Origin: Alloascoidea hylecoeti
Taxonomy: Eukaryota
Direction of reading: 5' to 3'
Length of the DNA stretch: 64,000 nucleotides
Assembly: GCA_001600815.1 (NCBI GenBank)
Contig: BCKZ01000001.1
Coordinates: 726,613-790,612, forward strand
Shown here: positions 8,243 through 61,013 of the stretch, piece by piece
Layout of the letters: the number at the start of each line of letters is the position of its first letter
Numbering within the stretch: the first letter of the stretch is position 1
Made by a program: the position numbers and the translations under genes
The notes under the pieces: model-generated
Database searches by the model: none
The model's input: the letters and a program-made list of their open reading frames with translations, nothing else
Told to the model about the DNA's origin: nothing

Positions 8243-8335
8243 TGTTGGATATATATTACACTCTTAGAACAGTTCACTAAAGAGTCGATTGGCTTTTTGG
8301 CGCAACTGGGAGAACAGGCACTTTGAACTTTAACA
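8243..8335 (+). mobile_element. Very short (93 bp) solo-LTR-like element, copy A, with perfect 5-bp TSD ATTAA
   Basis: Begins TGTTGG and ends TAACA. Flanked by ATTAA at 8238-8242 and 8336-8340. A near-identical inverted copy lies at 30352-30442. Confidence 0.75.
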
Positions 8336-8997: not shown

Positions 8998-10251
8998 TTA
9001 CTCCGAATCCAGTTGATTAGCTCGTTTTCGTACCATTCTAGTCATAAGTTCTTGTCTTTTTTTAACATAGGTAATCTCATCATCATTTGGATTTCTCCAC
9101 TCATTTATAAAAAAAATACCATGACCATCATTACTAATTGAATTTAAAGTTTGACGAGAATCATCATAAACTTTTCCATAATAAATGTCTTGTAAGATCC
9201 AAACGGTTACTATTCGTAGTTCTTCATGGGATTTATTAACTCTTTTTTTCACAGCTCTCATTAAATCCAGAGTATGCGGACAATTTAATTTTTGCTGTGT
9301 ATTGCCAATAATGTTACTAGTTGTTGGGGAAGGAGGAGATGATGAAGAATGGTGACATTCACTTTGAGGATGATCAACTATTGTCCTGATTACCCAAGCA
9401 TTATAGGGAGCCTCGTTATTTGTTTGGTCGTTATAACTTCCACGAACCTTCTTTTTGGCAACAAACAGCATCTTATTACACCTTTTACAACTGTAAGAGA
9501 AGTTTGCGCCCAAACAGCCCCCCGAGACTTTTCTAGAATTCGTATGGATGTCGTTCATTTCTTGGTACGCGGAAGAGTGTCTCGAACGGGTGGTGGGATG
9601 GCCATAAAAAGACTCTCGTGCGTTCTTCAGATCCCGTAGTCCCTTTGCTCTCATTTGGTACAATAAAACCCCGTTTTTGGCCGTAAAATACAACCACATT
9701 GCGAATTTGGCAGCTTCGACCGAATGGAAGTAGTTTCCAGGTTTAAGGTTCAGATTCGACAGACACTTGTGGAACCAACAACGAGTGTTCATATTCGTAT
9801 TTGTAGCCCCTGTAAGCCCTCCAAAAGTGTTCAGGTTAAAGGGGTCAACAAAAGTGCTTTCCACATCCTCGATTCTGGAGGTGGACCTGGAAGCGGAAGT
9901 GGAGGGAGATAACATCTGCATCTGCACCGGAGACTCCGATTTAATCTCACTCTGGGGAGAATAAGTGAAGGAAGTGGAGGGAGAAAGCGAGACGGAGGAT
10001 ATATGGCTGTAGTTGAGGTCCTGGGTATATTCTTGTGAGTAATCCTGGGCATAATCCGTGGGGGCATTGTATAAGTTTGCCGTCACAGGCATGGGCATGG
10101 TCATCGTGGGAGGAGCCATCGCATGGGGAGGGTGCACGTATTGTGAATAGAGCATGCTGTAGTAACTGTCGTTGGCAGCTTGGGGGAAACCACCTTGGGA
10201 GTAGCCGAAGTCAATCATCTTATAACCTGGGAGAAAAAGAATGGCTTCCAT
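8998..10251 (-). CDS. Array paralogue 1: putative Mutator/WRKY-GCM1-like zinc DNA-binding protein
   Basis: 417-aa ORF with a Ser/Pro/Tyr/Met-rich N-terminus. Shared family motifs: RCWFHKC, LKPGNYFHSVEAAKFAMWLYFTAK, ANFSYSCKRC, WVIRTIVDHPQSEC, CPHTLDLM, ILQDIYYGKVYD, LMTRMVRKR. The ORF is secure; the function is inferred. Confidence 0.7.
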   Translation of the reverse strand: MEAILFLPGYKMIDFGYSQGGFPQAANDSYYSMLYSQYVHPPHAMAPPTMTMPMPVTANLYNAPTDYAQDYSQEYTQDLNYSHISSVSLSPSTSFTYSPQSEIKSESPVQMQMLSPSTSASRSTSRIEDVESTFVDPFNLNTFGGLTGATNTNMNTRCWFHKCLSNLNLKPGNYFHSVEAAKFAMWLYFTAKNGVLLYQMRAKGLRDLKNARESFYGHPTTRSRHSSAYQEMNDIHTNSRKVSGGCLGANFSYSCKRCNKMLFVAKKKVRGSYNDQTNNEAPYNAWVIRTIVDHPQSECHHSSSSPPSPTTSNIIGNTQQKLNCPHTLDLMRAVKKRVNKSHEELRIVTVWILQDIYYGKVYDDSRQTLNSISNDGHGIFFINEWRNPNDDEITYVKKRQELMTRMVRKRANQLDSE

Positions 10252-12353
10252 ACGGTGGCACCCCTCTTCTTTTAAATGTTTCCGTTCCTTTCTCTTACCG
10301 TTATTTTAGACTCACAAGAACAGAGGGGGATATTTAATTATAATTATCTGTATGCATCTCTCGTATAAGCACAGCTGATCGCCTACACTGAACAGTGAAC
10401 AATATAAATATTACATATCCGATACATGGCACATGTCTTGTGTGTCTACTTGTGTGAAACAATTGGTGGTTTCGCACCTTTTTTTCTGCGATAGCTCCGC
10501 ACCCCCAGCCGTGGAAGAAGGCCACGCTGGTTGGTTTTCCTGTGAACAAAACGCGGCGTAGTCGAAAACATTATTATTATATCTGATTCATAATCAGTAT
10601 GCACCGTATCATTTGAATGTTTCACTTCTTGCTGCAATTGGACCACCTATTGTTGTATCTAGGGGAGTATTACTAATCGAATTGTATCCGACTCCCCGGC
10701 TTGAAACGTCCAAAAGTGGTGCAACAAAATATATCCAAAAACTACTCATATCGATGGCTAAGATGCCGATATAGTTTGCCTATGTTTATTATATAATACA
10801 CCAACAATGATATTAATCGACGAGGCAATGAAGTGACCATCAATCCCACTAGAATTCCATGGCCCAGAATATTATATAAACGGCTGATGTTTACCACGAT
10901 TTACTACAGCATATCGTATATTACATCTTAAAGCATCCCATATATTATGGTCTCATAAAAATTTATGAATGGTATATTTAGAGGGAAATTATCGCTACAT
11001 TCCACTCGCTCACGTATCGGATTCATCGATATCGATTAAAATTAGAGTCACTATACTATGGACTCGATATTGATAGGTCTAGACTTTTTATCTATTTTCA
11101 CCAATACTAATTATAAATTCGTTTTAATTAATATCAACTATGATTTGTTTATATATATATGTAGAAATATAAATACAAATTCGAATACAAATACAATCAG
11201 GAAAGCCCTTTTTATATATTTTCACAATCGCGATAAGAACATATAACTTATACTCTTATAAGTATATGCATAAACCTGTGTAACTGTATATCTTGGCCTG
11301 CATAATCATCCCTGAGCACTATATAATTATGCACACGGCTCAATTATTAATTTAACCTGAGAATATTGATATAAACGGCTATAGGCATGCACCTCTGTAT
11401 TTTTGATGGGATATATGCCAAGAATGGCCATATCTAGAAATATTACCTAAAAGCACACAATCAATATTAAAATAATAGCATGTAATTGAAGGATGGCATA
11501 ATAGATATTACATAAAGATAATCACTTGTAATTTTTTTTTAATTCTGTAGAATATTTATTAATATTATATAACTTGTAATTGATGCCTTAATAAATAATA
11601 TATTTATTAATTAGTAATGAACACTTTCAAACAGTACTCCGATGCTTTCCCTTGGCCAATGAATCAATGATATTTAAATTGAATGTGCAAGTATTGATAA
11701 CAATTTTAATTAGTTATAATGGATGATTGAATGATGGAAAGCATTTAGAAAGATGAGTGCTTCAATTATTAGTAATCTGTTTTTTTAACTGCGATAAGCA
11801 GAAGACTATTACAGATCTAGATCGCTAGAGAAACCAATGCCACTTGATTTACTATAAATAGAATTTATTTATATGTATATTTTAATATATCTGACCGTTC
11901 TTGAGTTGACCGAATCTGAACCTGATTATATCACTAACATGTGTTTCTCTCTTTTAAAAATATAATTATTTCTGCCAGGTGATATCACCATAGTTCTTTG
12001 CCTATAAATAAGCACTATTTCCTCTCTAGCAAATCTTCAACTAGATTCTCTTTCTGAGTCCTTACAATTTCGACTTAGCTTGGTTTATAATTAAATAAAA
12101 ATAGATCTAGATAAATTATAAAATCATATTGTGAATTAATATAGGTATAATTTTAATATGTAATCAAAAATTTTAATATATTGTGTTAATTGTGGAGAAA
12201 TTTAAAGAAAAGAATCAAAAAGATATAGAGGAATTGAAATGTAATAAAACTTTAATTGATCGTAAGACCTAGTTATAGCTTACTTTCTCACTTGGACAAC
12301 AATTTAATTAATTATGATTTTAACATTTTTCGATTCAATTTTTTTCACTCCAT

Positions 12354-13702
12354 TCATGATTTATAAAGTCTTGTCATTCGTTTTTGTACCATTCTTATCA
12401 TTAACTTTTTTTTGCCCTTAATTTCTTCAATTTCTTTTGGATTCAAGTTTGACTGTGAAATTACTTGCTCAACATATTTCCCAGATAAACTTTGTTTAAT
12501 TATTGTCAACTTTTGTTCTTTTTCATCATATGCTTTTCCGAGATAAATATCTTGCATAATAGTTACTGTTAAATCTCTTAAAAGACCTATTGATTCTTTC
12601 TGTTGATTTTGTAACTGTAATTTAAATTTAATAGTCTTCATCAAATCAAAAATGTGAGGACAAGACAATCTTGAGTTTTCATCCTTTAACGCATTATCTT
12701 TTTGTGCAACCCGTGATTCGACCCGAGGTCGGAAATTTGAAATATTTTGATTCTGGAAACCACAACTAGATTTTGGATGGTATTTTAACGTAGTAAGATA
12801 GCAACATCCTTTGGGCAGCATGATTTTAATATCCTGTTCATTTTCTCCAACATGCATTTTTTTAACGATCTAATATATATCACTATGTTAGAATACATTA
12901 TTAAATTTATAATAGTAAAACCATCCGTTGAAACCAGTTACGCCAAAAGTGGTAAGATTTCTGGTCAATTGCCAAATGTAAGATTCACATATCCAACAAC
13001 TATAATATTAATAAACAAACATACCCATTTAGCTGTATATACCGATTTACCACATTTCTTACAATAATATGAAAAATTCGCATGATGACTAGAACTTTTC
13101 CTTAAACCATCTGCTCTTAGTTGTCGTAAATTAACATTACACTTTACCGTAAAAAATAACCACATTGAATATTTCATCTCTTCAAGTGTTGAACAATAAT
13201 CACCTTTTTTTAAAGTTAAATATGAAACACAATGCCAGAACCAAGCTCTTATTCCTTTAGAATTACAAGAATATGTTACTACTGTATTGTTTCTTAAAAG
13301 GCGGTCAGGCTGATATGGTGTGATGAGCTGTGGTGGTTGCATTTGAAATTGTTTTGTTATAAGACTTCTAAAGTTAGAAGTGGATGATCCAGGTGAGTTT
13401 GAACTTAAACCTGGACCTGGACCTGGACCTGAATCTGAATCTGAACTTGAACATGAACTTAAACTTATTTGCATTTCAATTCCCTTCATACTGCCATTAT
13501 CTGAATCCGGTAATTGAAAATTGGTTGAAGACATTACTTTATACTCATAGGTACATGTAGATGTTGATTCTTCTTCTTCCGATGTTGTTAAATCCAAAGA
13601 ATATTTAGAAATGTCTGGATCATCCTCATATGGATTTCTATAATAAACTCTTGAAATTTCTCTAGGATCAATATATTTATATTCATAATTGTAGTCTTCC
13701 AT
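12354..13702 (-). CDS. Array paralogue 2 (two exons, 397 aa)
   Basis: Exons 13702-13025 and 12869-12354 are joined by intron 12870-13024 (GTATGT...TTCTAAC...TAG), which fuses the two ORF-track halves in frame. Motifs: RAWFWHC, LKKGDYCSTLEEMKYSMWLFFTVK, ANFSYYCKKC, HPKSSC, CPHIFDLM, IMQDIYLGKAYD. Confidence 0.75.
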
Positions 13703-16700
13703 AATTGTGATATATTAAACTAAAAAACAAATCAACCATTTATATAGGCGTAAATATGAAGAGTTCAAATATGCTAAAATTAGGGTCGTCTTATTTTTCT
13801 TTTTTTTTAATTTCTAATTAGCTATTTACTGTAAACTTCAATGACGTTTGGACATAAATTATGGATTTCTTATATACAATTATGAACAAATTCAAAAATT
13901 AACTGTCCCAAAAATTTCAGGACAGCAACGAACTTGTCGTGTTTTTGAAGAATGTTCTTTGAATCTTACTTTATAATTTTAAACTTTATTATAATATGAT
14001 GCAATAAACAGTCAAACTCAAATAAATAAGAACCAAATATTTCTTCTATTAAAATATTTCATCTTCAAAATTTACACTTTGGATTCATGTTTTTATCAAA
14101 AAGGATTTTATAAACATCTTATTTATATATTTTATCTTTTATACATTGTGCAGGTGGGGTTTTAATTTAAAGAGGCCATGAGGATATAATTATTTATGAT
14201 ATCTTCTAGCTAGGCTATGTTGCACTTACAGCTGAAGTATTATAAGTTGTCCCCGTACATATAATTACAAGTTTTTAAGTTTTTAAGTTTGGTCCTCAGA
14301 TTGGGAGCTCAATCACAAGAAGTTGTTGAAGATCGAGACTAGAACATTTGTGGATTTTAACCGAATATGGATCTATAGTATTACATCGTTAATTTAACAG
14401 AATTCGTATATGATTATAAAACATATTAGCGTAAAGTTTTGAAGTCATATCACTTGCTAGTTGATTACCACTGCAGAATATATACCTTAAGCTTTATTGG
14501 CTATGGATTACCATGAATGTATTAATGTGTTCAAATAATTATAAAAATATAGCTATGTTAATGATTTGCAATCACTAAAGATGCAAAGGTTCAAATTAGG
14601 TCTGTAACTATATACAATGGTAGTCCAGTCCCTGGTTTCTAAATATTCCTTTTGGCAGTGAAGGCCCGGACTTAGCTCTAGGGCTAAATTTAAGGACAAA
14701 TATGCATAGTAGTATTACGTAGACATCAATATTCAGTCAGATGATGTTATTAGAGTAAGGATAAATATGAAAGAATAGAATATTAGTATTATATTGATAT
14801 ATTATAATTCGGGAATATCTCTATTATTGAAAATTGTGATAGAAATAAGTGTTCTGATAATAACCAGTTACTTGTGATACGTACGAATCTGTGAAGTATT
14901 TAAATATAATTCTTCTCTTAATTACCAGTTGTCTAATATATCAACAATTTTCTAGTGATCGCAATTATCAGGATATATTAGAATGGCTGCTAAATTTTAC
15001 TAGTTTCTGTTTCTTATCGATTTATTGATATACACAAAGTTAATGCTAATAATATTAACTATAGCTTCTCTTTGAATATGGATGGATAGCTTTCTATTTA
15101 AAAGTAAACCTCTTGATGATATATGGATACAATTGTAAAAAAGAAAAGAGCAGTTTTTTCCGATCAATTGACCAATTTTTGAGTATGCAGTACTATGCAC
15201 TATGTACTAGTAGTTTTCAAGATGTCGTAATAGTAAGGTTGATTATATCTATTTTGATAATTAATGTGCCTTATATCAGTAACTTATATTTTATTTCAAT
15301 TGATAATATTGATAATATTGATATTAAATTGATTAAGCCAACTAAGCATAATCTTTAATTTTGATGATTTAGACTTTTCCAATGCATATGCATATGGAAG
15401 GTCCTGCATATAACAGCATTAGAAAACTTTAATATTCATGTGCATGTATATTTTAACCGCATAGAATTATTGAAAATTTTTAACGGTTTTCAGGAATTTG
15501 GATGGTCAAATAATAGGACTTCCGAATCTTTTACGATGAGGGGTCACTTCTTTTCTCTCTTATAGTTGTTACAGCACACGGATATGTTATATATAAATCT
15601 TTATCATATTTACCCGTATGTTTTATCATTAATGGGGCTTGAAAAGAATCTGTTTCTAGCTAATGTTTAGCGCTATATATACCATATATTGTTGATTTTT
15701 TATCTTAATTATTTTAAGAGTGCATGTACGCCATGGATATGTGACTTCTAGATATAATTAATTATAGGTAGAATCAAATTTAAATCATCTGGATTTCTTT
15801 TGTGGTCTGATTCGATTTCATATGAATACCGAGACCATTCGGTATTAATAAACCTATCCTAAAATAAACATATGTGTGGTCCAGAAATCCAATTTATCTG
15901 ACATAAGTTTATCTCAAGATAGAGTAAATAACACAAGGTTCCGCGGTTGAAAATTGACTGTAGGCCCAGTGTAGGGTGACCTTAGGTTGGGATAGGCAAG
16001 GGGCTTAGGCTTAGGGCCCGGGGATAAGACCGGAGTCACTGGACCATCCAATCAAATTTTTCTCCACAATCATCAATTTATATTTTGAAAATTAAATATC
16101 GTAAACATATTTATTTTATTTAACACCATCTATCATATCCACCATCCTTCCCCAATAAAACCCCCTAACAAGGAAACGGACCAGATTCTTCTGGTTTCCA
16201 TACAGTATTCTTCATTACAACCTCCTAACACAGTAAGCATTAAATGGGTGTGTGGTGTGTGGAAAAAAAGCCAGCAATGATGGGTGGTGTTATATCTACA
16301 CTTCTTTGCCGACAGTCTTGATATAGAGTTAGTCTTTTTGAGCCAATAACTGACGATGGGTTAGAAACACATTCTAATGAGGTGACCAACTTTCGTGTAC
16401 CCCATTCGCATGTAGGCTATACTGACTTCCGCTGACCAAACCTTCAAGGGAATGTATGATATGAAATTAGTGCGAATGAAATGGTATTCATTCGATGTGA
16501 GAGTGCCTTAACATGCCACATCCGTGGATTCATAAACTTAGATCCATTTTGAGCTCATATATGTCTTTTATAATCTCGATTTGCATTCGGCACTTTTTTT
16601 CTTGGTGGAGGGTCCTGTGGCTGTTGCGTATTTCCGCTCGATCGCTTCATTCTAACATATGGTAAGACGAGCTCATATTAATTCCCATACCCATTCTAGC

Positions 16701-17975
16701 ACAATAAACAAGTGAATCAGTAGGTTGATATCGATTCTTTTTTAACTTGTAGGCAATTGGTGTTTTTCATTCACTCCCGCCGAAGAGTGTCCCATCGATA
16801 CCATTCTTTCTATTATAACATGTTGAAGGTACGGAGTTAACCTTTTCTCCAATAATCTTTGAAATTCGTGTTCAAGTGCAATCTGTTTAAAATATTTGCG
16901 ATTCAACCATCTGCTCCTTTATCCAAGAGGCCTCAAGTTTATTTTAGTTATTACCATTCTTGAAGGTTGTGAAGAGGAGAAAGAATATACAGGGTAATTA
17001 ACAGATTAAAGTGGTGTGTCTCATCCTTTAATTTACCAAATCCATACATAATTCTATGATTGGTTGCGATAGTGAAAATTCAAGTACTACCAGTATTTAG
17101 AAAGTCTTCCGGCCAAATCCGGGGAGAATCATACAAAACTTACGGGATCTTGTTGCAATAGTAGTTTAGAATTAGAATTATTTGATATTTCGCTTATGGA
17201 AATCTAGAAGTCGCTCTATGGTATATTTAAAAATATAGGAATTTTTTGAAGGAGTCCTGTTGTAGTTCATTAATATATCAATACGTATTAAATATTTACT
17301 GCCACTCCAACGTTGCATTTTCAGTTACACACACTTATAAAAGTATAAGTTATCGTATGCAGGGAAATTGCAACCCTTTGAGTGTTAACTAGCTCTATCA
17401 GTATATTTATTACTTAGTGTAACAAAAAAGATGTATATCATATGTAACATGTTGGAGATATGATATTTATTAACACTCCAAAATAATATATAAGTTATTA
17501 ACATAATTTAAGATAATTATTAAAATCAAGTTTAAGATTTTTGAAATTTATTACAACTTTAGAGCACTACAGTTAAAGTAATGATGCAATAATCAACAAG
17601 TTTATTAATTAATTCATTGACAATATTAAAAAAAGCAATCTATATCATATGTACATTTATTAAATATATTTAAAAAATAACAAGCTTAAATACTATCGTA
17701 GTTTATAATTCTCTATCTATAGCTTATAATTAAGCTTATACAATATAATCTATCAAATACATAACTTTAAAGATAAATAATGATAAGAAAAATATATAAG
17801 AAAAAACACAAAATAAATTATTATTATATACAAAAAAACAAAAATATAACAGTTCTGAAAAATATGAAAATGCAATACGTATATTGTGAATATATTTCGG
17901 TATATACCAGTGGATCATGAAGGGCCAATAATATTCAAGAAAAAACAAATAACAACATGTACAATGCTAACTCCA

Positions 17976-19313
17976 TTATAATCCAATACTGGTAAACTTC
18001 TTTCGAACCATCTTCGACATTAAACTTTGTCTCTTTCGAATATAAAGAACTTGCTCCAAACTTGAGTTTAAGTGTTCATTAATTTCAAGCTGACCGTTTC
18101 CATTCTGACTAACTGAGGTAAGACATTCAATCTGTTCATCATAGACCTGTCCAACATAAATATCTTGTAAAATGCAAACAACTGTTTTTTCAAGATCTTC
18201 AGATATTAGATTAACTTGATCTCTTATTGTTTCCATCAAATCAATTGTATGTGGAGAGTTCATTTTTGGAAGTTTATCTCTTGACAATTGATCAATTGTA
18301 AATTTTGGACTTTTATCAAATGTATTATTATTTGTTGAGCCAGTTACAGCCAGATGATTATTACAATCGGAATCTGGATGATTAATTATTGTTCTTACAA
18401 CCCATACATTATTTGGAGCATTATTGTTAACACCATCGTTATATGACCCAGAAACCTTCTTTTTAACAACAAATAACATTTTTTTGCATATTTTACATTG
18501 ATATGAAAAATTTGCAGGACGATCCGAATCATCGACATGATCAGACATGGGACTATCGCCAGCAGCTGTGGAATCATTAGACCTTAAACCCGTCGCCCTC
18601 ATTTGTCGTAATTGAATACCGTATTTTGCTGTGAAGTATAACCACATCCCATATTTTGCTTCTTGATATGTTTCGAAGTAGTTACCAGGCTTCAAGTCGA
18701 ATTCAGCTAGACATCTCTGAAACCAACAACGAGTAGGTGCATAACGGGACTGATATGGAAGTAGATCACCAAGGTTATAAGGACGTATTAAGACGGTATG
18801 TGGGTGAGTATGTCTAGTAGAACCAGAGGACGAACTTCTTGATATTGTTAAGCTTGAATTTGAAGAAGTACGATTAAGATTGGCAGAAGTAGAACCTGAA
18901 GATTGATAGTAAAAAGGATCTTGGAGCTGAGAATGTGGAGTATTTGCTCGGGGGGTTATGGCGGTAAGATATGATCTATCAAGAATCACTTCAGATAACT
19001 GGTCGTAATCAACCGCTGTAGACTCATATTGTAACTGACGAGAGGATCTTGGATCTTGTTTTTCAGAAGACATCGGTGATGATTGGTATTGATAATTTAA
19101 GGGAGATGAAAGTGATTTATATGGAGGGAAACTAAAGTCTTGCAACTGATCATGATGAAATCCACCATTATTTAGTGTACATGTTGATGGTGTATATGGG
19201 GAATAGCTGAAGCTTCTTTGAGACATTAAAGTAGTGTTTAGTACAAATTGGATGTGTTTTGTAAATGATTCTAAATTGATTTTGAAAAGAGATTGTTTGG
19301 GAATTAGTTTCAT
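17976..19313 (-). CDS. Array paralogue 3 (true start possibly ATG at 19226)
   Basis: 445-aa ORF, closest to paralogue 1. Motifs: RCWFQRC, LKPGNYFETYQEAKYGMWLYFTAK, ANFSYQCKIC, KKKVSGSYND, WVVRTIINHPDSDC, SPHTIDLM, ILQDIYVGQVYD. Confidence 0.7.
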   Translation of the reverse strand: MKLIPKQSLFKINLESFTKHIQFVLNTTLMSQRSFSYSPYTPSTCTLNNGGFHHDQLQDFSFPPYKSLSSPLNYQYQSSPMSSEKQDPRSSRQLQYESTAVDYDQLSEVILDRSYLTAITPRANTPHSQLQDPFYYQSSGSTSANLNRTSSNSSLTISRSSSSGSTRHTHPHTVLIRPYNLGDLLPYQSRYAPTRCWFQRCLAEFDLKPGNYFETYQEAKYGMWLYFTAKYGIQLRQMRATGLRSNDSTAAGDSPMSDHVDDSDRPANFSYQCKICKKMLFVVKKKVSGSYNDGVNNNAPNNVWVVRTIINHPDSDCNNHLAVTGSTNNNTFDKSPKFTIDQLSRDKLPKMNSPHTIDLMETIRDQVNLISEDLEKTVVCILQDIYVGQVYDEQIECLTSVSQNGNGQLEINEHLNSSLEQVLYIRKRQSLMSKMVRKKFTSIGL

Positions 19314-20020
19314 TATATAAAAGAGGTTTGCATTATTAGAAACACGATAAAGGTGTATTTTCCATGACGTTATTTGGTTATGGGATGCACATTATAAGCC
19401 TCCTCGATAATGACTTGCTAGGCTCCGGTTTCTCTGCGTCTGCATGGAATCATTTCGCTTCGAAATATTGCCAATTTGAGCCTTGTGAACAATAATAAGT
19501 TGTTCTGGAAACCTGTCATGTCATACTCCCATACTTTGAAACCTGCAATATTTCACACTTTCAAAATCTATTATTAATAATATAATGATATAGTAATAAG
19601 ACAACGGAATACATGAAAGATATACTATAACTAAAGAAAGAATCTAGGCGAAGAACGGGTGAATATAACAAACCGCCTATGGTTAAAGTATATTTGGTTT
19701 CATAATTGGAGCAAATTAATAAAAATTTTTAATACTATGGAAATTACGAAACTAGGTTGTTCATTCAATTGCAATTGATAAATATAGATCCACAATTAAG
19801 TGTTTTAATTTGTAAATAACAAAATACAGTTGCAGTAGCTATGTTATACGTATTTGACATGGGCTATATATGGTGAAGAAAGAATGTGCATAATATGTAA
19901 GTTAAACGGTCTTCGAACGGACATGTGAGATTTGTATTATAATTTCAATCGAAAGTGGGAGATCAACAATAAATCTGTGTAATAATTAGGTTTCCAAATA
20001 TAGACTTTTTGAATTGAATT

Positions 20021-20087
20021 GAATTGATTTAGATAGAACTGAATTGATTTAGATAGAACTGAATTGATTTAGATAGAACTGAATTGA
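20021..20087. repeat. 20-bp minisatellite GAATTGATTTAGATAGAACT x3 plus a partial copy
   Basis: Three exact tandem copies, preceded by GAATT units. Confidence 0.9.
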
Positions 20088-21087
20088 GCTAAATTGAAAT
20101 CAAATAATTATATCTGATTTGAATTGAATAAATCGAATGAAGAAATGAAACGAAGAAACTTGATCCAAATCTTTAATATTAATATCGAAAACCTGTGTGG
20201 TACCTGCGACAATAATCCCAAGATTAACAAATAGAAACGTCGATTATATTCCTGTTTTGGTACTTATCTCTATAATTAAGCTTAAATAGACATATCCAAT
20301 ATAAACCTTTACTAGGTAATATTAATATTCAATGGTTGTTTCTCTTTTTTAATTTCTATATTTAGACATCCACATGAATCACTTCATACACACGTGATCC
20401 ACTCGGTTAAATTTGTATATCCATTTCTTTTTTAATTTTACAAACTTTTTATAATAAGCTGTTTTTTCACCGAATATCCAAGTCTAGATTGTTTCATTTC
20501 TTAATCTCACTCATCAAAATACATGCCGTTTATATATAGCCTTCTCCATGTATACAACTGAACTGGTCAGACGGCTTTGAACAAGATCATAATAAAAACT
20601 GTGGACTATCATGAATAACATCATTTTGGGCTTTGTTATGTGTAACTCCGCCTATGAAGTCCATTTAAATGCTCAAAAGGCGTCTGGCTGGAAGGTTGGA
20701 TAACCTTCTTATTAGATAGAGGCAGTGTGAGATTGTAAAATAAGTGGTTGTGGCAGCAACTGGATCGTTATTAATTATTTTACTTTCCAGGATACTTGCA
20801 TAAAAAGCAGCTGCAACTGCAAATCACATTAACATTTAATAATATTTAGAAATTAAACCTCTTTTTGTATTAGAGTTTCAACAATGTAACGTAATTTATC
20901 ATTTGCAAGCTACTATTAAAATTTACAAAAGGTGTATCTATAATATATATTGTCTACGTTATTATGCTAAAAATAGATCTTTCATAGTGATTTCTATGGT
21001 AGAAGTACAAAGTACACAGTTATTATGATCAAAACAAAAGTATATGTTAATCACTATATCAAACATATATAACATCAATATTCCCAT

Positions 21088-22770
21088 TTAAGCAATCCAG
21101 AACCAAACCTTTTCGAGCATATTTCTCGGTTTTCTTATGACATAATTGGCTTCTGCCTCATCTGCTTGAGCTTTACCGGTAATAATATCGATCGTTTCAA
21201 CTGGCTTATAAAATGTAAATGGTACATCAGGATGTTTAACCTTTCTAAAAATTATATGTCCAACATAAAGCCCTGTAAAAATTGGAAGTGTGATATAAGA
21301 TGCTAAGAAATTATTGACAGAAAAATTACCAGGGAAGAAAACGCTATAACCATTTGTTAATGTTAAAACAATTAATAACACGATAACAACATAACTGAAA
21401 TATGGCTGAAAATATGCTTTAAATGTTATAACATCTTCCATCCCATTATAAATTACCGCTTTTCTGAACCTTAAGTAAGCTAAAAGAACTGTAATCCAAG
21501 CTATATAACCCGAAATTGTTGTGATATTAGTAAACCAGTTGAAAACAGTTGCAGATGAACTTGAAACATTCAAATATGATAAAAAGCAAAGACAAGATGT
21601 AAGTCCAACACAATAAACTGGTGTACCAAATCTATTACAGGTGGTAAGGATTTTGGGGCCCTGTCCTCTCATGGCAAGTGAATAAGCTGTTCTAGAAGCT
21701 GCATAAAGGAATGAATTCCCAGATGACCATGCTGAGGTTAAAATACAAGCATTGACAATATGATTAAGTACCTTAATACCAGCGTTTTGAATTCCAATAA
21801 CAAAAGGTGAAGCAGCAGCAGTGGACTGGCCAGCATCAATAGCATTTAATAATCGTTTATCGTTATAAGCAACCAATGCACCAATAACAATAGCAGCACA
21901 ACAATAAAAGAAGATTAATCTGTAAACAAATCTACTAGCTGCTTTTGGTATATTTCTTCTTGGACATTCTGCTTCACCACTTGTAGAAATAACAAGTTCT
22001 GGAGAAACAATAAAGGCAAACCCAGCTTTAATAATAGCAGTCCATACAGCTAAAAATTTTCCTGTATTTCCACTTACCAAATGCTCTGTAAATGCACCAG
22101 GAGTCTTCCAAAATCTAAATCCTTTTGCATCATGATCTGGTCCACCACCACAAATAATCACAACACCAACAATCAACAACATAAGAATACATATAATTTT
22201 GATAGAAGCAAACCAAAACTCAGTCTCGCCGTAGACTGAAACCGGTAGAAAGTTAAGAGCAACAACAACAACAAGAATAATAGTAATCCAAACAGCTACA
22301 TTTACAGATTCTGTCCAATATTCAATAATAATAGCAGCAGCTGTAATCTCAGTAGGAACAAGAATTCCAAATGCATAGAAATAATTCCAACCAGCTGCAA
22401 AACCAAGACTACTATCTAAATATCTATCAACAAAAGAATAGGCACTTGTTCCAGGTAATGGAATATAAGTAGCCATTTCTCCAAGGCACATCATAATATT
22501 CCATAAAACTGCAGACAATACGAGGTAACCAATTAATAAACTTGCAGGACCAGTGGTGGCTAAGATACTTCCAGATCCGACAAACATGCCTGTACCAATT
22601 GACCCACCCAGTGCAATCAGTTGAACATGTCGACTTTTTAAACCTTGATGAAGAATCATTTTATTTGATTCAAGATCTAATTGTGTAATAATCTTCCCCT
22701 CATCACCTATATCTTCGGTAATAGCGTCACTACTAGTGTTATAGGTTTGTTTTTCTCCCACAAAACTCAT
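21088..22770 (-). CDS. YAT-family amino-acid permease (PUT4/proline-permease-like)
   Basis: Motifs LKSRHVQLIALGGSIGTGMFVGSG, YGETEFWFASIK, GEAECPRRNIPKA and ASPFVIGIQNAGI, with about 12 hydrophobic segments. First ATG at 22770 (the ORF-track start is TTG). Confidence 0.9.
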   Translation of the reverse strand: MSFVGEKQTYNTSSDAITEDIGDEGKIITQLDLESNKMILHQGLKSRHVQLIALGGSIGTGMFVGSGSILATTGPASLLIGYLVLSAVLWNIMMCLGEMATYIPLPGTSAYSFVDRYLDSSLGFAAGWNYFYAFGILVPTEITAAAIIIEYWTESVNVAVWITIILVVVVALNFLPVSVYGETEFWFASIKIICILMLLIVGVVIICGGGPDHDAKGFRFWKTPGAFTEHLVSGNTGKFLAVWTAIIKAGFAFIVSPELVISTSGEAECPRRNIPKAASRFVYRLIFFYCCAAIVIGALVAYNDKRLLNAIDAGQSTAAASPFVIGIQNAGIKVLNHIVNACILTSAWSSGNSFLYAASRTAYSLAMRGQGPKILTTCNRFGTPVYCVGLTSCLCFLSYLNVSSSSATVFNWFTNITTISGYIAWITVLLAYLRFRKAVIYNGMEDVITFKAYFQPYFSYVVIVLLIVLTLTNGYSVFFPGNFSVNNFLASYITLPIFTGLYVGHIIFRKVKHPDVPFTFYKPVETIDIITGKAQADEAEANYVIRKPRNMLEKVWFWIA

Positions 22771-24232
22771 GTTGTGCTGCACGTTTTTCAAAATGTTATA
22801 ATAAAGATTCCGACTTTATTTTCGGAACAGCACAATAGAAACTTAAGAAGTTTTGCAGTATAAGACAATTGGAAAAGAGGATCTGTATGGTCTTTATATT
22901 TTAATTTCATATTGCATAAAACAACGATTAATAGAACAAACTGTAATATAATCTGGTAGTTTACTTCAAACTTTAAACTAAGGTATAGCCATCTGCATGC
23001 AATAGACTAGCTTCATAATGGTGATTAATTTTTTTTTTTCATTAGCTTCATTTCACTTTCTATCATATCTTTTGACTGGTCAACACATAATATATCGATA
23101 TTGTAAACTTCTAGATATGGTGAATTGTAGAATGAGTAGGCGAATTAGTTGTCTACATGTATTATGATCTTATAGTTTTCTATGCATCACTTATCTTAAT
23201 AAAAGTAAGTGCCAACTATGGATAACTAAACTATTGGAGTGATAGATGCTAGTGTTAATTTCTACGTTTGTTCCCAGTTATCTACCGTCATAAATAGATA
23301 TCGACAGTACTACCAGTATCTATATAATAACTATATAAACTAGAATCCAAAACTACTCATCCTTGTCTGACGACTCAGCTCAGCAGTATGTATACCTTAG
23401 TATTCAAAGGCATCTACTTAAGCTTCCTGATTGCACTTTATCTCAATATTCGGCACATCCACACGTGACATAAGTCACATTATTGTTATATGACAACTGA
23501 TAACAAATGCAAAAGATATCGATAACGTACTAATCATGTGCTTATTCCCTCGTACGAGTTTTTGCCAAGCTGTAAAGCAATGCTCTATTGGGATTGCATA
23601 ATCAAATTGGATATTATATGATGAGTAAGATGATGCTGGGACATTGACCAAAACGCGGAAAATCATCCATTACATTACCCCACAGGGAGACTACTGCAAT
23701 CAGTAAGTAATTAGTATTCGGAGTCTGGAAGACAAATATACCAAATATAAATATTCATAAATTATTATTAGTACTCGGACTGTTGTTTATCTGCTAATAA
23801 TCTTTTAACTTCTTTCCGTTCAAGTTGTCAAAGTATTTGGTGCTCTAGCATCTTCAAAAATACTATGATAATTAATGGGTAATTTGATTTAACGGGTTCG
23901 GATAATAAGGTTTTATTAGTCTCTCCGATGGTCGATTTTTAACTATTGAATGATATAATATGGAAGATCTACCGAGTTTATATGTTATATTCGGTAATAG
24001 ATATATCAAATTTCTTTACTAATAGGGTAAAAATATGAATATTATGAATATATAATTTATATATACACATGTATATGTACTAAAAAGCAACAATCGTTTA
24101 TATAATTAACAACAAACAATAATGCTAAACAAACCCTTTAAAACCCGCTATAATTTGATTAATTATGAATATTAACTCAGATAAATAATTTAAATGCATC
24201 AAAAAGTTAATATATACCCCCGGACAAAAATA

Positions 24233-24961
24233 TTAATGGAATAACGTTCTTGTCATTCTTAAAAGACGTCCTCTACCTGCCTTAAGTGTATGGTATGTTG
24301 GCTGATCAGTAGAGATCAAATGTATATTCCCGTGTCTATCAATCTCAGACGCATATGTCGAACGAATTGCTTTCCCCAAATATATATCTTGAAGAATTTC
24401 AACAGTTGTCTCACGAGTATTTGAATTCCTACCACCTTCTCGAATCATAATAGTATGTATCAGATCATCCAAATGCATACATTTTATCCTACTAGATCCT
24501 CTTTGGTGAGCCTGAGTGATAACTTGATTGCATGTCTGATGATGGATTTTATCTATTCTATCAACAGTCCATCTTTTATCAACTTCTCCAGATCTCGAAC
24601 GATAACATTTTTTAATACCAGTGAATACACTTTTTCCACACATTTTACAGCTGTATTCATAACTTCTATCTAAATTCCCATTCCGTTTTGATTTCCTTTG
24701 ATGTATAGGGATCTTATATTTTACTGTGAAGTATAGCCATATTGCATATTTTAGTTCTTGCTCTGTGTCACAATAATAACCCAAATCCAAATTGAAATAT
24801 TGAATACAATAATGAAACCAACCTCTTGTTCCTCCATTCCCCGAGTATTGTTTCCTATTGAGAAAAAGTATTTCATCTAAATTATATGGACGAACATAAC
24901 TTCTTAATCTTGATTGTGTTTCTAAATATGAATCAAACTCAGAAAAGGGATCAAAAGACAT
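24233..24961 (-). CDS. Array paralogue 4 (242 aa, essentially the domain only)
   Basis: ATG at 24961 (MSFDPF). Motifs: RGWFHYC, LDLGYYCDTEQELKYAIWLYFTVK, YEYSCKMC, WTVDRIDKIHHQTC, CMHLDDL, ILQDIYLGKA, LLRMTR. Confidence 0.7.
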   Translation of the reverse strand: MSFDPFSEFDSYLETQSRLRSYVRPYNLDEILFLNRKQYSGNGGTRGWFHYCIQYFNLDLGYYCDTEQELKYAIWLYFTVKYKIPIHQRKSKRNGNLDRSYEYSCKMCGKSVFTGIKKCYRSRSGEVDKRWTVDRIDKIHHQTCNQVITQAHQRGSSRIKCMHLDDLIHTIMIREGGRNSNTRETTVEILQDIYLGKAIRSTYASEIDRHGNIHLISTDQPTYHTLKAGRGRLLRMTRTLFH

Positions 24962-27735
24962 TGTTAATTCCAAATTGTTATTGTAATAGTTGATGAATTG
25001 TTGATAATGTATGAAGTTCGGTTGTCAAAAACAGCGTTAAAGTGAAATGTATTTTGAGGTTTTATCAATTGAGATTTATGGAGAAGAAGATATCCTCCAT
25101 TTAAATGTAAATGTTTTCCTCAGATCATGTCTAGCAACAGTTATGGCTGATAATTAACAAAAACTAGTATAGCTGACTCCAGCTCCAAAAGTTGATCATC
25201 ATATAGCTACCTGCCAAAAAAATTATTAAGTTATACCATAAAACAACAATACATATATTGAATGTGTCAAATACGCGAAAGAGCTTCGTTAATTGAAGGA
25301 AGTACAAGCATGCTCAGCCTTAGTACAAACTGTACAACCGCAATCATTGATATTAATGATCATCTCAGATTCTTCTGCTGAAAAGTAAGGTGAAATCCTA
25401 TTATTTAACAATTAATAGAAGTTATGAGTAAAAATAAGGATGGTGTGCATTGCAGATAGCCTAAATAGAGGCAACAAAACTACATCAAAGCTGAGATCAT
25501 AAAGTAAGTTTCCGGAAACAGGCACTGGAGTGAAAGAAGTGAAAGGCTATGATATCACTGCTGGTCGTCAATGGATTCGTCCCACTGCCTCTTGTAGAAG
25601 TGGTGGCCGTGGAGGTTGAGTTTACGCTTCTGTTTCTCCGGGTAAATTTGCTATATTGTGCTACTTATAACATTATGTAATCACTAACGTTAATTTAGAG
25701 ACCTAACCAAAATTCAGTAAAAGAAATCTTCAGAATTTTATTACAGACATATATAAAAGTAATTGGCTAACCAAGTTTAATACAACATTTCTTCGCAATT
25801 GCAGTTTTAACCAAATATCACGATCAAAAAACCAGCAAAGACACACTATGTACCTGAACACGACAACAACCTGGTTTCGTATATTATCTATATGGCTATG
25901 ATGAGTTTGCAAACTTCAGGTCCATCAACAATACCCCAAATCACCGGTTCTGTATATTCAAAATTGTTAAGATCAAGAAATGAGTATAAACGTAACAGTA
26001 TGCACAACTATGCACAACTATGCATCAGAGAACTCAATCAGCAGGTTCGTAAATCAACGGAACACGAAATATAATGTTACTAGTGGTTTGCAATGGGGAG
26101 TTAATTATAAAAAAAAAAAATAATAGGTGTGAATGAAATTGCGCACGCTCCAATTAAGTTAGAAAGAGTGAGGGAGTGTTTCAACATGCTGTTTATTAAA
26201 AATTGAGTAATAAAATTGCTGCGATTTGATTCACAGGCACATTATATATTGGGGGTATTTCTTGGAGCACTTAACCAATGAATAGGCACGAAATAAAATA
26301 GAAAATACTATCATTTCTACCAGCCTTTCAATACATATAATCTACTGAGAAAACTTTCAAATCCACTTATATAAGCTGCTGTAATGGTAGAATTGGAATT
26401 AGTGATATGGAACTATGCAGGGCTAAAGGGCTTGAGATAGTAGATTAAAAATGAAAGAATCAGATAGTCTATTTAAATTTAACTGATTACTAAAGTTGAT
26501 GTGGTAGATGTTGTAGATGATTCTGAATTAACGGGTGAAGCGATAGCTGTGGAAGTATGAGGAGCCAGTTAAGTATAGGAGATGATTTATATGAAGTGAT
26601 GAAAGTCTGTTACCTGAGATGAGCTTGATATAGATAAGAACTTCCGATCAGTTTTATTTTAACGGTGTATCCCGCATGTTTTGTATAGTTTCTCCGGGGT
26701 GTTTTCCTTACAGGTGAATCGGATTACATTACAACCGTTATTTCCTCACAGTTATGATTCTTATATTATGAATATAACCTTATATGCATGCAATATTAAG
26801 GCAGACTTTTGCACTGGAACCCATTACTGGGACCACTGATTGCTAATTGGTATTGGCGGGTGTAATTGCACTAGCAATTGGAACTGGTCCTGATTCTGAA
26901 GAATTATTTGATTATTCTGATTGATTAAGTAGTTTTCCGGGTTCATAATTTGCAGAGCATTATGCAGTTTTTAAGAAACGTTTAAGGTCTTATAGAGTAC
27001 TCGATGGCTGGTCAATAGTTATACTGTTGCCATTTATATCTGGGGCAGTGACTCGAAAAAAGGGCACCTTTAAATTGATCCAGTTCCGATTCTATTACAC
27101 GGAACAGTGATTCCGAAAAAGTGATTCGATTTTTTCACAAAATTATTATGCATATGCATATGCCTGTTTCGTGCAAAAGGCTTACCTTAATTCCCAGATT
27201 TTATCGATATCAGTTTTTTTCGTGGCTCACATCTTTCTCAAGTATAATTTCGTTGCACGTTAGAAGCATATATAATATTCACTTTTGAACGTGATTTGGT
27301 CAGTGTCAAAAAATCATTTTATTTATGACAAAAGAATTTAGTGTATGGGTTCTATAAATCAGTAATTCACTGGATCACAAAGTTTTAATTATCTGTAAGA
27401 TGTTGTGTCCAATTACAATATTCGACAATAAGAAAAATGTATTTTATAATTAAGTAAAAAATGAATATTAAGTTCTATACTTCTATGTATTATATATGAT
27501 TTTTATTCCAATTGGATATTTTACAAGCGAATGATGCAATGAAATGAAAATGAATAATGTGCCAAAAAATAACTAACAACAAATAAAAATTCCTTTATAA
27601 TGAGTGAAAATGTGATGTGTTATATATAGATGTATTATGCTTGAAAAAAAATCCTTATTAGCCAATTAATTATGTATGTTAACTCTGATAAATTCATCAA
27701 CAAGTTAATACATACTCCCAGAAGAAGAAAAAAAT

Positions 27736-28524
27736 TTAATGGAATAACGTCCTTGTCATTCTTAAAAGACGTTCTCTACCTGCCTTAAGTGTATGGTATG
27801 TTGGCTGATCAGTAGATATCCGATGTATATTTCCGTGTCTATCAATCTCAGTATAAGATGACGCATGTGTCGAACGAATTGCTTTCCCCAAATATATATC
27901 TTGAAGAATTTCAACAGTTGTCTCACGAGTATTTGAATTCCTACCACCTTCTCGAATCATAATAGTATGTATCAGATCATCCAAATGCATACATTTTATC
28001 CTACTAGATCCTCTTTGGTGAGCCTGAGTGATAACTTGATTGCATGTCTGATGATGGATTTTATCTATTCTATCAACAGTCCATCTTTCATCAACTTCTC
28101 CAGATCTCGAACGATAACATTTTTTAATACCAGTGAATACACTTTTTCCACACATTTTACAGCTGTATTCATAACTTCTATCTAAATTCCCATTCCGTTT
28201 TGATTTCCTTTGATGTATAGGGATCTTATATTTTACTGTGAAGTATAGCCATATTGCATATTTTAGTTCTTGCTCTGTGTCACAATAATAACCCAAATCC
28301 AAATTGAAATATTGAATACAATAATGAAACCAACCTCTTGTTCCTCCATTCCCCGAGTATTGTTTCCTATTGAGAAAAAGTATTTCATCTAAATGATATG
28401 GACGAACATAACTTCTTGATCTTGATTGTGTTTCTGAACAATATGGAATTGAAGCATTGAAGATATCATCCTCGCTCGATTCTTGATCAAAATCAAGTAA
28501 ACTAGAAAACGGATCAAAAGCCAT
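27736..28524 (-). CDS. Array paralogue 5 (262 aa), near-identical core to paralogue 4
   Basis: ATG at 28524 (MAFDPF; the ORF-track start is TTG). Same motifs as paralogue 4, plus an acidic N-terminal insertion (DFDQESSEDD). Confidence 0.7.
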   Translation of the reverse strand: MAFDPFSSLLDFDQESSEDDIFNASIPYCSETQSRSRSYVRPYHLDEILFLNRKQYSGNGGTRGWFHYCIQYFNLDLGYYCDTEQELKYAIWLYFTVKYKIPIHQRKSKRNGNLDRSYEYSCKMCGKSVFTGIKKCYRSRSGEVDERWTVDRIDKIHHQTCNQVITQAHQRGSSRIKCMHLDDLIHTIMIREGGRNSNTRETTVEILQDIYLGKAIRSTHASSYTEIDRHGNIHRISTDQPTYHTLKAGRERLLRMTRTLFH

Positions 28525-30230
28525 TATTAAATCCAAATTGTTATTGTAATAATTGATAAATTGTTGGAGTTCGGTAGTCAAAACAGCGTTTAGGTGAGAT
28601 GTATTTAAAGATTATTATCAATTGAGTAAACCTTTATAGAGAAAAAGTAAAGTTATCAATTGAAGAGAAAAAGTGATCTATTTATGTTGTATAAGATTTC
28701 CCTAGATCATGTTTAGCGTTAGTTATGACTGATAACTAGTCTAAATTTAACATAACCGTTAAAATAAGTGTACGCAAAAACAATGCCGCATTGACAGCAA
28801 AAATAAACATATTGTACAGAAAAGTTGAATTTCAATGACCAGTAGAAGGAAAAGAGAAAGTATTATTATTCACCATGTCAGAATCAAACATCATGTAAGG
28901 GCTTGGGGGGTCTTTTTTTGAACTTAAAGTGTAAAAACTAGTCAAAATTACTTCTACATTACTAAATAAAGCTTTTCGAAGAGTCATAAGTGATCATAAC
29001 AGAAGACAACAAGCGTGATATTAATGGACGGAGAAAGATGCTGCACTGAAAAGGCAATGAGATTGGGTGAGATTCGTCAATGGTGTATCTGTGCTGTTAA
29101 AGGCTCAAAGTTATTCCCACTGCCACTCACGTAATTGGCGAAGTTGAGCTTAAGCTCCTTTTGTTGTTCCGGGTAAGTGCTTGCCACTTCGATGTTCATG
29201 CATATTATCATCAATGACATAACAACATTAATGTTAAGGTTATACTTTACTCAACTTTCGGTTGAGCTTGGGTAATAGACAATTATAATTTATAACAGAT
29301 ACACTTTATATAATTAAAATTTTAATTGCAATATATACTGGTACACAATATATTTGTGCAGATTATTTGAATGTGGATGCTCACGATATATTAATCGTAA
29401 AATATACGTACAACAACCTGGAAAACAACAATAGCTTGAAAGCATATACATCTATTGCAAAACTTTAAGGGTCCTAAACTAAAATACACAAATATTGTTA
29501 CATCTGAGGTCGGGAAGAGTTTAACATCCACATGGCCGATAACCATTCGTCAACATGATTATTATCCATCAAAATGGCCGAACATTAGTACTTTACCTGA
29601 CTGAATATGTATTTGTTACCAGTGCGCTCTAGATTGAAAGATGGATATAAGGATCACAGCAGGATTAAAGGATTGATCAGCCCAAAATTATTGCATTTCA
29701 ACCACTAATTGCAAAACCACCTACAATTATAAATTATTCAAAATAGTATTATTAAAATCTATTTAATCTCGTAATTCAGATGATATATTTTTGAGTCATA
29801 AATATTGTTGTCGTGTGAATGTTCTTCTACGATTTAGCGTATTGACACCAAGAGCTCTCCAACTTCAGTCTTTAATCGTAATTTCAAGCATTCCACGATT
29901 AGCTGAAAAAGTGCCATATGGACATATTATTATACCTCTAATTTCATGGAATAGTCAAATGTCTCTTTAATACAAGCGTCGTAGTAAAAAATGAGGATTT
30001 ATGAAGTTTAAAAACTTGTGGGACATAACGGGAAAAAAGTTGCAACTCAAAAGTTCTTTCTCTTTTTACAACCACCAAATCATAACAAATAATTAAAATG
30101 GCACGTACAAGGACTATGAAAACGAGAAGGGTAAAATAACAGGCTCATACTCTAATAGTTTATATTTGTTGGCGGTTTTTGTAATTCGTGGTTGAAATGT
30201 AACAGTTTTGGGCTGCTCGATCCTTTAATT

Positions 30231-30880
30231 CTGCTTGGACTCTTAGTCTGTCGGTTCAGAATTTTTAAAGAGAAAACTAGTTATATAATACAATAAAGAC
30301 AACAACAATTGTATAGAATGTCTTTTATAGTACAAAATATATATTGAGTTGTGTTAAAGTTCAAAGTGCCTGTTCTCCCAGTTGCGCCAAAAAGCCAATC
30401 GACTCTTTAGTGAACTGTTCCAAGAGTGTAATATATCCAACAAATTGAAAAAAAGAGTCCATTAAGTATGATATAGGCCCATAAGTTTTATATATGCTAA
30501 ACGCCTCAACCATTCTACTTAATTTAGGCCACCTTTGATCAATAATTGTCGGCTATATATCTCCTCCACTAATCATACAATTCTAAACTATAGTCTCGAG
30601 TCGTATAACTTACAATTAATATAGAAAAAAGGTAATTAGTAAAGGGGGAGGAGGAATATTTAGTTCATGTGGCCGAAATTAAGTAGAATTACTGTATACC
30701 GGTACACGGAGGCGTTTAAAACACACGTTATATGAACTATGCATATAAGTACTCCTTTTTGCCATTCAATATTTTGTACTACGTATAGGTATGATTGTTG
30801 TTGTCTTTATTGCAATTACACTTTCTAAGTCATTATCTCTATAAATTTTCTGTTTGTTCAGCTTCCGATCTAGTTAGCAG
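30231..30880. mobile_element. Degenerate foldback/MITE-like long inverted repeat centred near 30598
   Basis: Arm matches in reverse complement: 30291-30309 with 30794-30812 (19/19), 30329-30340 with 30769-30780 (12/12), 30498-30507 with 30709-30718 (10/10) and 30512-30532 with 30669-30689 (20/21). Arms may extend to about 30133 and 30962. Confidence 0.65.
30352..30442 (-). mobile_element. Very short (91 bp) solo-LTR-like element, copy B, inserted in the left arm of the foldback
   Basis: Reverse complement of 8243-8335 apart from one substitution and a 2-bp indel. Flanks AGTTG and AATTG (4/5 TSD match). Absent from the right foldback arm. Confidence 0.75.
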
Positions 30881-60929: not shown

Positions 60930-61013
60930 CTTCCCCGCCAGGGGTCGAACCTGGAATCTTTCGCTGTGACCACTTAATCGTAGGCGAACGCCTTGCCATT
61001 GGGCCACGAGGAA
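60930..61013 (-). tRNA. tRNA-Arg(ACG) with a 12-nt intron (60966-60977)
   Basis: Minus strand reads TTCCTCG TGGCCCAATGGCAAGGCG TTCGC CT-ACG-A [TTAAGTGGTCAC] A GCGAA AGATT CCAGG TTCGACC CCTGG CGGGGAAG. All stems pair, and a T8 Pol III terminator follows at about 60917-60924. Confidence 0.95.

Follow-up and report, generated by a model that had tools for sequence, protein, structure and literature searches.

A five-gene array in Alloascoidea hylecoeti encodes a lineage-restricted protein family with a probable WRKY-GCM1-like fold

Introduction

What is encoded by a tandem set of related genes whose products resemble no named protein family? A 64,000-nucleotide (nt) stretch of Alloascoidea hylecoeti DNA (assembly GCA_001600815.1, contig BCKZ01000001.1, positions 726,613 to 790,612), referred to here in its whole length as the window, raises this question between its positions 8998 and 28524, where five minus-strand genes share a common domain. 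We number these genes, or paralogues, 1 to 5 in order of position; all coordinates are those of the window. A first-pass annotation, made from the letters alone, had proposed that they encode transcription factors descended from the DNA-binding domain carried by Mutator-like element (MULE) transposases. The analysis reported here indicates that they probably form a new, divergent, stand-alone WRKY-GCM1 (MULE/Aft-like) family, made up of regulators rather than representing a new kind of system. We hold it likely that the family domain has the WRKY-GCM1 fold, taking the fold alone. With appreciably less assurance, and on the strength of a predicted structure, we favor the fuller reading, in which the family is young and lineage-restricted and consists of stand-alone zinc proteins with the WRKY-GCM1 fold that bind DNA and serve as regulators.

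Results

The fold of the common domain was predicted with AlphaFold from gene 4. A first model, based on 7 alignment rows, was mediocre, with a predicted local distance difference test (pLDDT) score of 68.8. A second model, covering residues 20-200 and based on 19 rows, had a mean pLDDT of 85.7 and a predicted template modeling (pTM) score of 0.83, and the five models of that run ranged from 83.7 to 85.7 pLDDT. Along the chain, the predicted structure consists of helices at residues 29-34, 44-55 and 67-81, strands at 86-89, 99-105, 111-121 and 127-136, and helices at 140-151, 164-175 and 182-194. The four strands make up an antiparallel sheet, and helix 67-81 ('EQELKYAIWLYFTVK') directly precedes strand 1. 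Strand 2 ends with C105, the loop ahead of strand 3 contains C108, and H140/H141 and C144 fall 4 to 8 residues past the end of strand 4, where the next helix starts.

This arrangement can be set beside the WRKY-GCM1 superfamily as characterized by Babu et al. (2006, PMC1702500). The core described there has four strands, with zinc ligands supplied by a Cys that ends strand 2, a Cys that starts strand 3, and two His (or His/Cys) residues that end strand 4. A hydrophobic or aromatic residue stands two positions before the first Cys, and the two MULE-associated families of the superfamily have an additional helix ahead of strand 1. The placement of Cys and His in the gene 4 model matches the zinc-ligand layout given there. 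The WRKY-GCM1-like fold proposed at first pass is supported by a predicted structure with a helix, a four-stranded sheet and Cys/His at ligand positions, for which Aft2 is the top structural match and to which WRKY domains align.

Aft2 was identified by a VIA search, which is independent of Foldseek. Among 48,161 representative chains, the yeast iron regulator Aft2, bound to DNA (4lmg_A), came first for both models, and re-alignment of Foldseek's own list put the WRKY-GCM1 superfamily first of 994. The Aft2 alignment pairs model residues 39-181 with chain residues 43-179 and so takes in almost the entire target. Five WRKY entries align to model residues 39-131, with 86-97% of their own length covered. 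The weight of these matches comes not from their scores; it comes from the motif-predicted superfamily ranking first each time, from near-full coverage of the targets, and from the agreeing ligand topology. The first-pass annotation had further described the 'QDIYxG' helices as a novel C-terminal module. This is probably wrong because the helices lie inside the Aft2 alignment, and in the model they appear to belong to a single Aft-like globular unit rather than to an added module. The truly extra pieces are an N-terminal extension carrying 'PYxL' and 'RxWF' and a basic C-terminal helix.

Residue conservation was assessed in an alignment of the wider family (A2, 19 rows) in which P numbers denote individual family proteins. 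The sole invariant elements are C-x2-C, found in 14 of 14 covering rows and preceded in each by a Tyr two residues ahead of the first Cys, and H-x(3-8)-C, found in 11 of 11 covering rows in forms such as HPQSEC, HHQTC and HGKGKGSAC. Where the last strand (strand 4) starts, 10 of 11 covering rows have a Trp; gene 2 has Cys instead. The family's variable insert is located between strand 1 and strand 2. Motifs listed at first pass are present in the alignments, but two of them vary across the wider family: the Cys of 'RxWFxxC' is Ala in P0007 and Asp in P0010 and P0011, and '(C/S)(P/M)H' has Ser in gene 3, lacks its His in P0007 and lacks its Cys in P0013. Because they are not invariant, the 'RxWFxxC' Cys and 'CPH' are unlikely metal ligands.

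The family is very rare. When 1.84 billion representative proteins were searched exhaustively with a family profile (cut-off E <=0.001), 16 proteins were recovered, the longest of 536 amino acids (aa). Three are the window's own (P0001, P0002 and P0014) and 13 are from elsewhere, a distribution that agrees with the lineage specificity claimed at first pass. Word-indexed protein searches returned no further member; the one made against 5.8 billion proteins found a single outside homologue. Ten of the outside proteins were checked for names and had none; their clusters contain one or two members. No family member reaches the threshold of any Pfam model. Zn_ribbon_GRF_2 was matched below threshold by 2 of 19 members (E 0.003), which is due to C-x2-C alone, and the remaining Pfam matches of the 19 members, with E values up to 10, are scattered and sub-threshold. 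The family can thus be called unnamed, as it was at first pass, on the basis that it has no Pfam model and no names in the sources. Absence from print is not claimed, since a nameless family cannot be searched for by word.

Proteins from outside the window fall into the window's own three subtypes. P0003, P0005, P0009, P0010, P0011 and P0012 resemble genes 1/3; P0008 (54% identity) and the orthologue-like P0006 (74%) go with gene 2; and P0004 (50%) and P0013 (33%) go with genes 4/5. As the same subtypes occur among outside homologues, they arose before the species in which they occur separated. P0005, P0008, P0010 and P0011 are N-terminal halves that end in 'AK[KRW]' followed by V..., at the point of the gene 2 intron, and some outside proteins are C-terminal halves starting just past that point. 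Thus, the intron position is common within the family. Genes 1, 3, 4 and 5 are without gene 2's intron.

The window is AT-rich (~32% G+C), and its gene content and intron signals are, judged from sequence, of budding yeast type. The minus strand of the array region holds seven open reading frames (ORFs) of at least 120 aa, of which six make up the five array genes and the seventh encodes an amino-acid permease (Table 1). The domain common to all five genes measures ~180-220 aa. Searches of paralogue against paralogue by tblastn gave E values of ~1e-16 to ~1e-70, far above chance, and tblastn with the paralogues found no sixth family copy in the 64-kb window. The coordinates of five minus-strand genes with a common domain, as annotated at first pass, are confirmed. 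Composition and lengths also agree with the divergent N-termini attributed to paralogues 1-3 and the almost domain-only organization of 4 and 5: the N-termini of genes 1-3 are ~128-175 residues long with 43-48% S/T/P/Q/N, and those of genes 4 and 5 are 24 and 41 residues. Splicing of gene 2 gives one frame that aligns with the other paralogues along its full length. Gene 1 CTG codons sit at columns where other paralogues have Leu, Ile, Val or Phe; the standard genetic code therefore applies. The proteins are basic overall (isoelectric point, pI, 8.6-9.4), with a pI of 10.4-11.8 for the final 25 residues. A hexanucleotide repeat in exon 1 of gene 2 is a likely source of N-terminal length variation in that gene.

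Table 1. Array genes and other features of the window, in order of position.
Feature	Position	Strand	Details
ORF	4171-6288	+	705 aa; no Pfam match at E <=1e-5
93-nt repeat, left copy	8243-8335	+	TGTTGG...AACA ends; 5-bp duplication ATTAA/ATTAA
Paralogue 1	8998-10251	-	417 aa; S/T/P/Q-rich N-terminus of ~136 aa; domain from residue 137 (9001-9843); no Pfam family
Paralogue 2, whole	12354-13702	-	ORFs 12965-13702 and 12354-12857; spliced protein 397 aa
Paralogue 2, exon 2	12354-12869	-	171 codons and stop; second domain half; strand-4 Trp replaced by Cys
Paralogue 2, intron	12870-13024	-	155 nt; GTATGT 5' site from 13024, TTCTAAC branch-like site, 3' AG
Paralogue 2, exon 1	13025-13702	-	226 codons; acidic/Ser-rich N-terminus and first domain half to 'YTAKW'; ends in phase 0 before GTATGT
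Hexanucleotide repeat	13400-13458		in gene 2 exon 1; encodes SDSDSGPGPGPG stretch
Paralogue 3	17976-19313	-	445 aa; Ser-rich N-terminus of ~175 aa; domain from about residue 176 (17979-18788)
20-nt tandem repeat	20016-20087		upstream region of gene 3; 3.6 copies, 98% matches
Amino-acid permease gene	21088-22770	-	Pfam AA_permease, E 2.4e-128; inside array between genes 3 and 4; not a family member
Paralogue 4	24233-24961	-	242 aa; nearly domain-only; the protein modeled
Predicted zinc-ligand codons, paralogue 4	24530-24649	-	C105, C108, H140 (or H141), C144; invariant in A2
Paralogue 5	27736-28524	-	262 aa; near-duplicate of paralogue 4
81-nt inverted repeat, left arm	29658-29738	+	84% identical to right arm
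81-nt inverted repeat, right arm	30154-30235	-	pair encloses ~415 nt
93-nt repeat, right copy	30352-30442	-	97% identical to left copy; same ends; 5-bp duplication CAATT/CAACT
ORF	44660-45301	-	213 aa; no Pfam match at E <=1e-5
Mvp1/Snx8-like ORF	46440-47078	+	Pfam model positions 46-256 of 258
Rcl1-like ORF	49079-49555	-	insert domain only
tRNA	60930-61013	-	84 nt; Rfam 45.4 bits; missed by ARAGORN

Between old paralogues, the proportion of synonymous sites that differ (pS) is 0.70-0.77, which is saturation, and all five frames are intact. The ratio of non-synonymous to synonymous substitution (dN/dS) means little for these pairs because synonymous sites are saturated, and it is likewise uninformative for the core of genes 4 and 5, where synonymous differences number 0. 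The proportion of differing non-synonymous sites (pN) does separate the parts of the protein: between genes 1 and 3, pN is 0.37 in the domain versus 0.57 in the N-terminus.

Over 1003 nt, genes 4 and 5 share 86.8% identity. Their central 181 codons show 0 synonymous and 2 non-synonymous differences, with a pS of ~0.16 at both ends and a whole-gene pN/pS of 0.70. Similarity is gone within ~100-150 nt beyond the coding region, and the flanks have diverged. The pattern fits gene conversion of the core, and the two genes are, as their sequences read, a recent or homogenized pair.

Spacers near the array genes are 1.5-4.3 kb long versus mostly 0.04-2.0 kb elsewhere in the window, the latter being a rough range in that some ORFs are exon fragments. 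Long intergenic spacers are typical of yeast regulator genes. The intergenic DNA of the array contains no transposase and no other ORF of at least 60 aa suggesting one. With none of the 16 family proteins exceeding 536 aa, the first-pass statement that an Asp-Asp-Glu (DDE)/transposase core is absent is supported. In the upstream 1.5 kb, no 8-10-mer with at least 2 G/C is common to four or more array genes. Flanking genes are ordinary housekeeping genes encoding LicD-like, KRE1, DHBP synthase, Snf7-family, adenylosuccinate lyase, YL1, TAF4 and other proteins.

Two copies of a 93-nt repeat lie in inverted orientation, one on each side of the array. That they are the ends of one large mobile element is ruled out by their TG...CA ends and by the separate 5-bp duplication of each copy. 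By their sequence they look like two separate solo long terminal repeats (LTRs) of a retroelement with unusually short LTRs. Just upstream of the right-hand LTR-like copy, a pair of 81-nt inverted repeats may be a small foldback element or one resembling a miniature inverted-repeat transposable element (MITE).

Further from the array, the partial Pfam matches of the Mvp1/Snx8-like and Rcl1-like ORFs probably reflect introns or assembly fragmentation. The tRNA probably contains an intron because it is 84 nt long.

Discussion

By combining structure prediction, structural comparison and exhaustive searches for relatives, we arrive at a picture in which zinc binding, DNA binding, a transcription-factor role and an ultimate origin from a MULE DNA-binding domain are the properties that we infer for the array proteins. 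In the mechanism we propose, one zinc would be held by C-x2-C, where strand 2 ends and in the loop before strand 3, together with H-x(3-8)-C just past strand 4. The metal would stabilize the four-stranded antiparallel sheet, packed on the preceding helix. Conserved polar and basic residues of the first strands ('LRQxR', 'YxCKxC' and 'AKKK') would, like their counterparts in WRKY, GCM1 and Aft2, insert into the major groove of DNA, and the conserved basic C-terminal helix ('KKRQxLMxRMVRKR') would add a DNA contact or a nuclear-localization signal. Disordered S/T/P/Q-rich or acidic N-termini in paralogues 1-3 may be regulatory or activation regions, which are missing from the short forms 4 and 5.

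The domain might instead be a zinc-binding alpha+beta fold unrelated to WRKY-GCM1 with some other job, such as protein or RNA binding, in which case the matches to Aft2 and WRKY would reflect a common helix-on-antiparallel-sheet arrangement. A number of results lean that way or weigh against WRKY-GCM1-fold regulators. The structure searches disagree, as Foldseek found no match in the Protein Data Bank (PDB) at E <=0.001 with either model although Aft2 headed the VIA search, and the alignment behind the second gene 4 model is shallow, at 19 rows. No profile link was detected: WRKY, FAR1, DBD_Tnp_Mut, AFT and FLYWCH were matched by 0 of 19 members in a Pfam hmmscan at E values up to 10, and a profile search of PDB sequences gave a single irrelevant match (E 2.6) and no WRKY-GCM1 member. 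Neither canonical MULE-type spacing, as given by Babu et al. (2006, PMC1702500), is found in the family, which has no HxH/HxC and no 20-70-residue insert between the Cys residues. In language-model searches, where all cluster scores are below 0.9 and are leads only, paralogue 4 recovered unnamed clusters first, with HNH (0.81) and Endonuclease_7 (0.79), not FAR1 or MuDR, as the closest named ones. The named neighbors of the gene 1 domain, however, all belong to the FAR1/MuDR/AFT group, being FAR1 (0.83), DBD_Tnp_Mut (0.82, twice), ZSWIM3_N/FAR1 (0.82) and AFT (0.81, 43% of members). Furthermore, the superfamily was predicted from the motifs beforehand and only then ranked first, both in two wide VIA searches and in the re-aligned list; small WRKY domains aligned over nearly all of their length; and ligand positions in the model agree, residue class by residue class, with the published layout. 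We therefore regard an unrelated fold as unlikely.

It is less probable still that the genes do not regulate the host but serve a selfish or mobile element as cargo or accessory genes, for example as the repressor or helper of a MULE-like element, and multiplied locally. Tandem multiplication, extreme lineage restriction, fast-evolving N-termini and LTR-like remnants flanking the array on either side are all compatible with such a history. Against it, the array and its surroundings contain neither a transposase nor any other mobile-element ORF, the individual genes have no surrounding terminal inverted repeats, and the 93-nt repeats, each with its own target duplication, represent separate solo-LTR-like insertions. 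Flanking similarity is seen only between genes 4 and 5 and only for ~100 nt, and both the subtypes and the intron position are conserved across genomes. We give the least credence to the idea that the ORFs are functionless duplicates, decaying or neutral, which seems very improbable. Loss of the strand-4 Trp in paralogue 2 and the whole-gene pN/pS of genes 4/5 might be taken as signs of decay, but the five frames have stayed intact despite synonymous saturation, the putative ligands do not vary, usable splice signals border the intron, and homologues of each subtype have been kept in other genomes.

That the favored family of WRKY-GCM1-fold regulators goes back to a MULE DNA-binding domain is plausible in view of the analogous cases of Aft1/Rcs1 and Rbf1 (Babu et al. 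2006, PMC1702500). Among the 16 family proteins and in Pfam, neither a sequence or profile link nor a transposase-bearing relative was found. We offer more tentatively, as a scenario that we doubt somewhat more than we believe, that budding yeasts captured a MULE-type DNA-binding domain independently once more, following Aft1/Rcs1 and Rbf1, and that the array shows the outcome at a young stage, with few species and three conserved subtypes. Long and short forms in tandem would compete for the same DNA sites, and gene conversion would keep genes 4 and 5 alike.

Should fold and DNA binding both prove true, the array would provide a compact case of the birth and multiplication of a regulator family in a narrow yeast lineage. 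Its clear signature, few members and tandem layout leave it open to genetics. It would also add a WRKY-GCM1 branch that cannot be detected by sequence, which would mean that profile libraries under-count such domains. The route from transposase DNA-binding domain to transcription factor has been in the literature since 2006; the array extends this known pattern and opens no new one.

Among known systems, FHY3/FAR1 (PF03101) and Candida Rbf1 are transcription factors taken as MULE DNA-binding-domain descendants and exemplify the route proposed at first pass. FHY3/FAR1 retain a transposase-derived core and a SWIM finger, whereas the yeast family has no transposase core, no SWIM finger and no detectable sequence similarity to them. 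The plant WRKY domain (PF03106; 2ayd, 1wj2, 6j4e/f/g) has a zinc-stabilized four-stranded sheet like the one predicted for the yeast family. In contrast to it, the yeast family lacks WRKYGQK, has C-x2-C rather than C-x4-5-C, and has a domain ~3 times larger.

The two MULE-associated groups of Babu et al. (2006, PMC1702500) can also be compared. The HxC family, the MuDR-type MULE DNA-binding domain (PF03108), shares with the yeast family a short Cys-Cys spacer, a His...Cys second pair and, in the model, a helix before strand 1, and DBD_Tnp_Mut is among the nearest named language-model clusters of the gene 1 domain. The two differ in that the yeast family has H-x(3-8)-C rather than HxC spacing, no Pfam match to PF03108, and a transposase region in 0 of 16 members. 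The insert-containing family (FAR1 PF03101, AFT PF08731 and Rbf1) agrees in the strand-4 Trp, and its 20-70-residue insert between the Cys residues is missing in the yeast family. Within that family, the Aft1/Rcs1-Aft2 domain (AFT PF08731; 4lmg) has this insert in place of C-x2-C and HxH in place of H-x(3-8)-C as the second ligand pair. The yeast family, known from a handful of genomes, differs further in its extra N-terminal extension ('PYxL', 'RxWF' helix) and shows no sequence or profile similarity to Aft1/Aft2. What it has in common with them is the organization of a stand-alone fungal protein without a transposase domain, in which a helix, a four-stranded sheet and further helices follow one another, as predicted for gene 4, and the strand-4 Trp is conserved.

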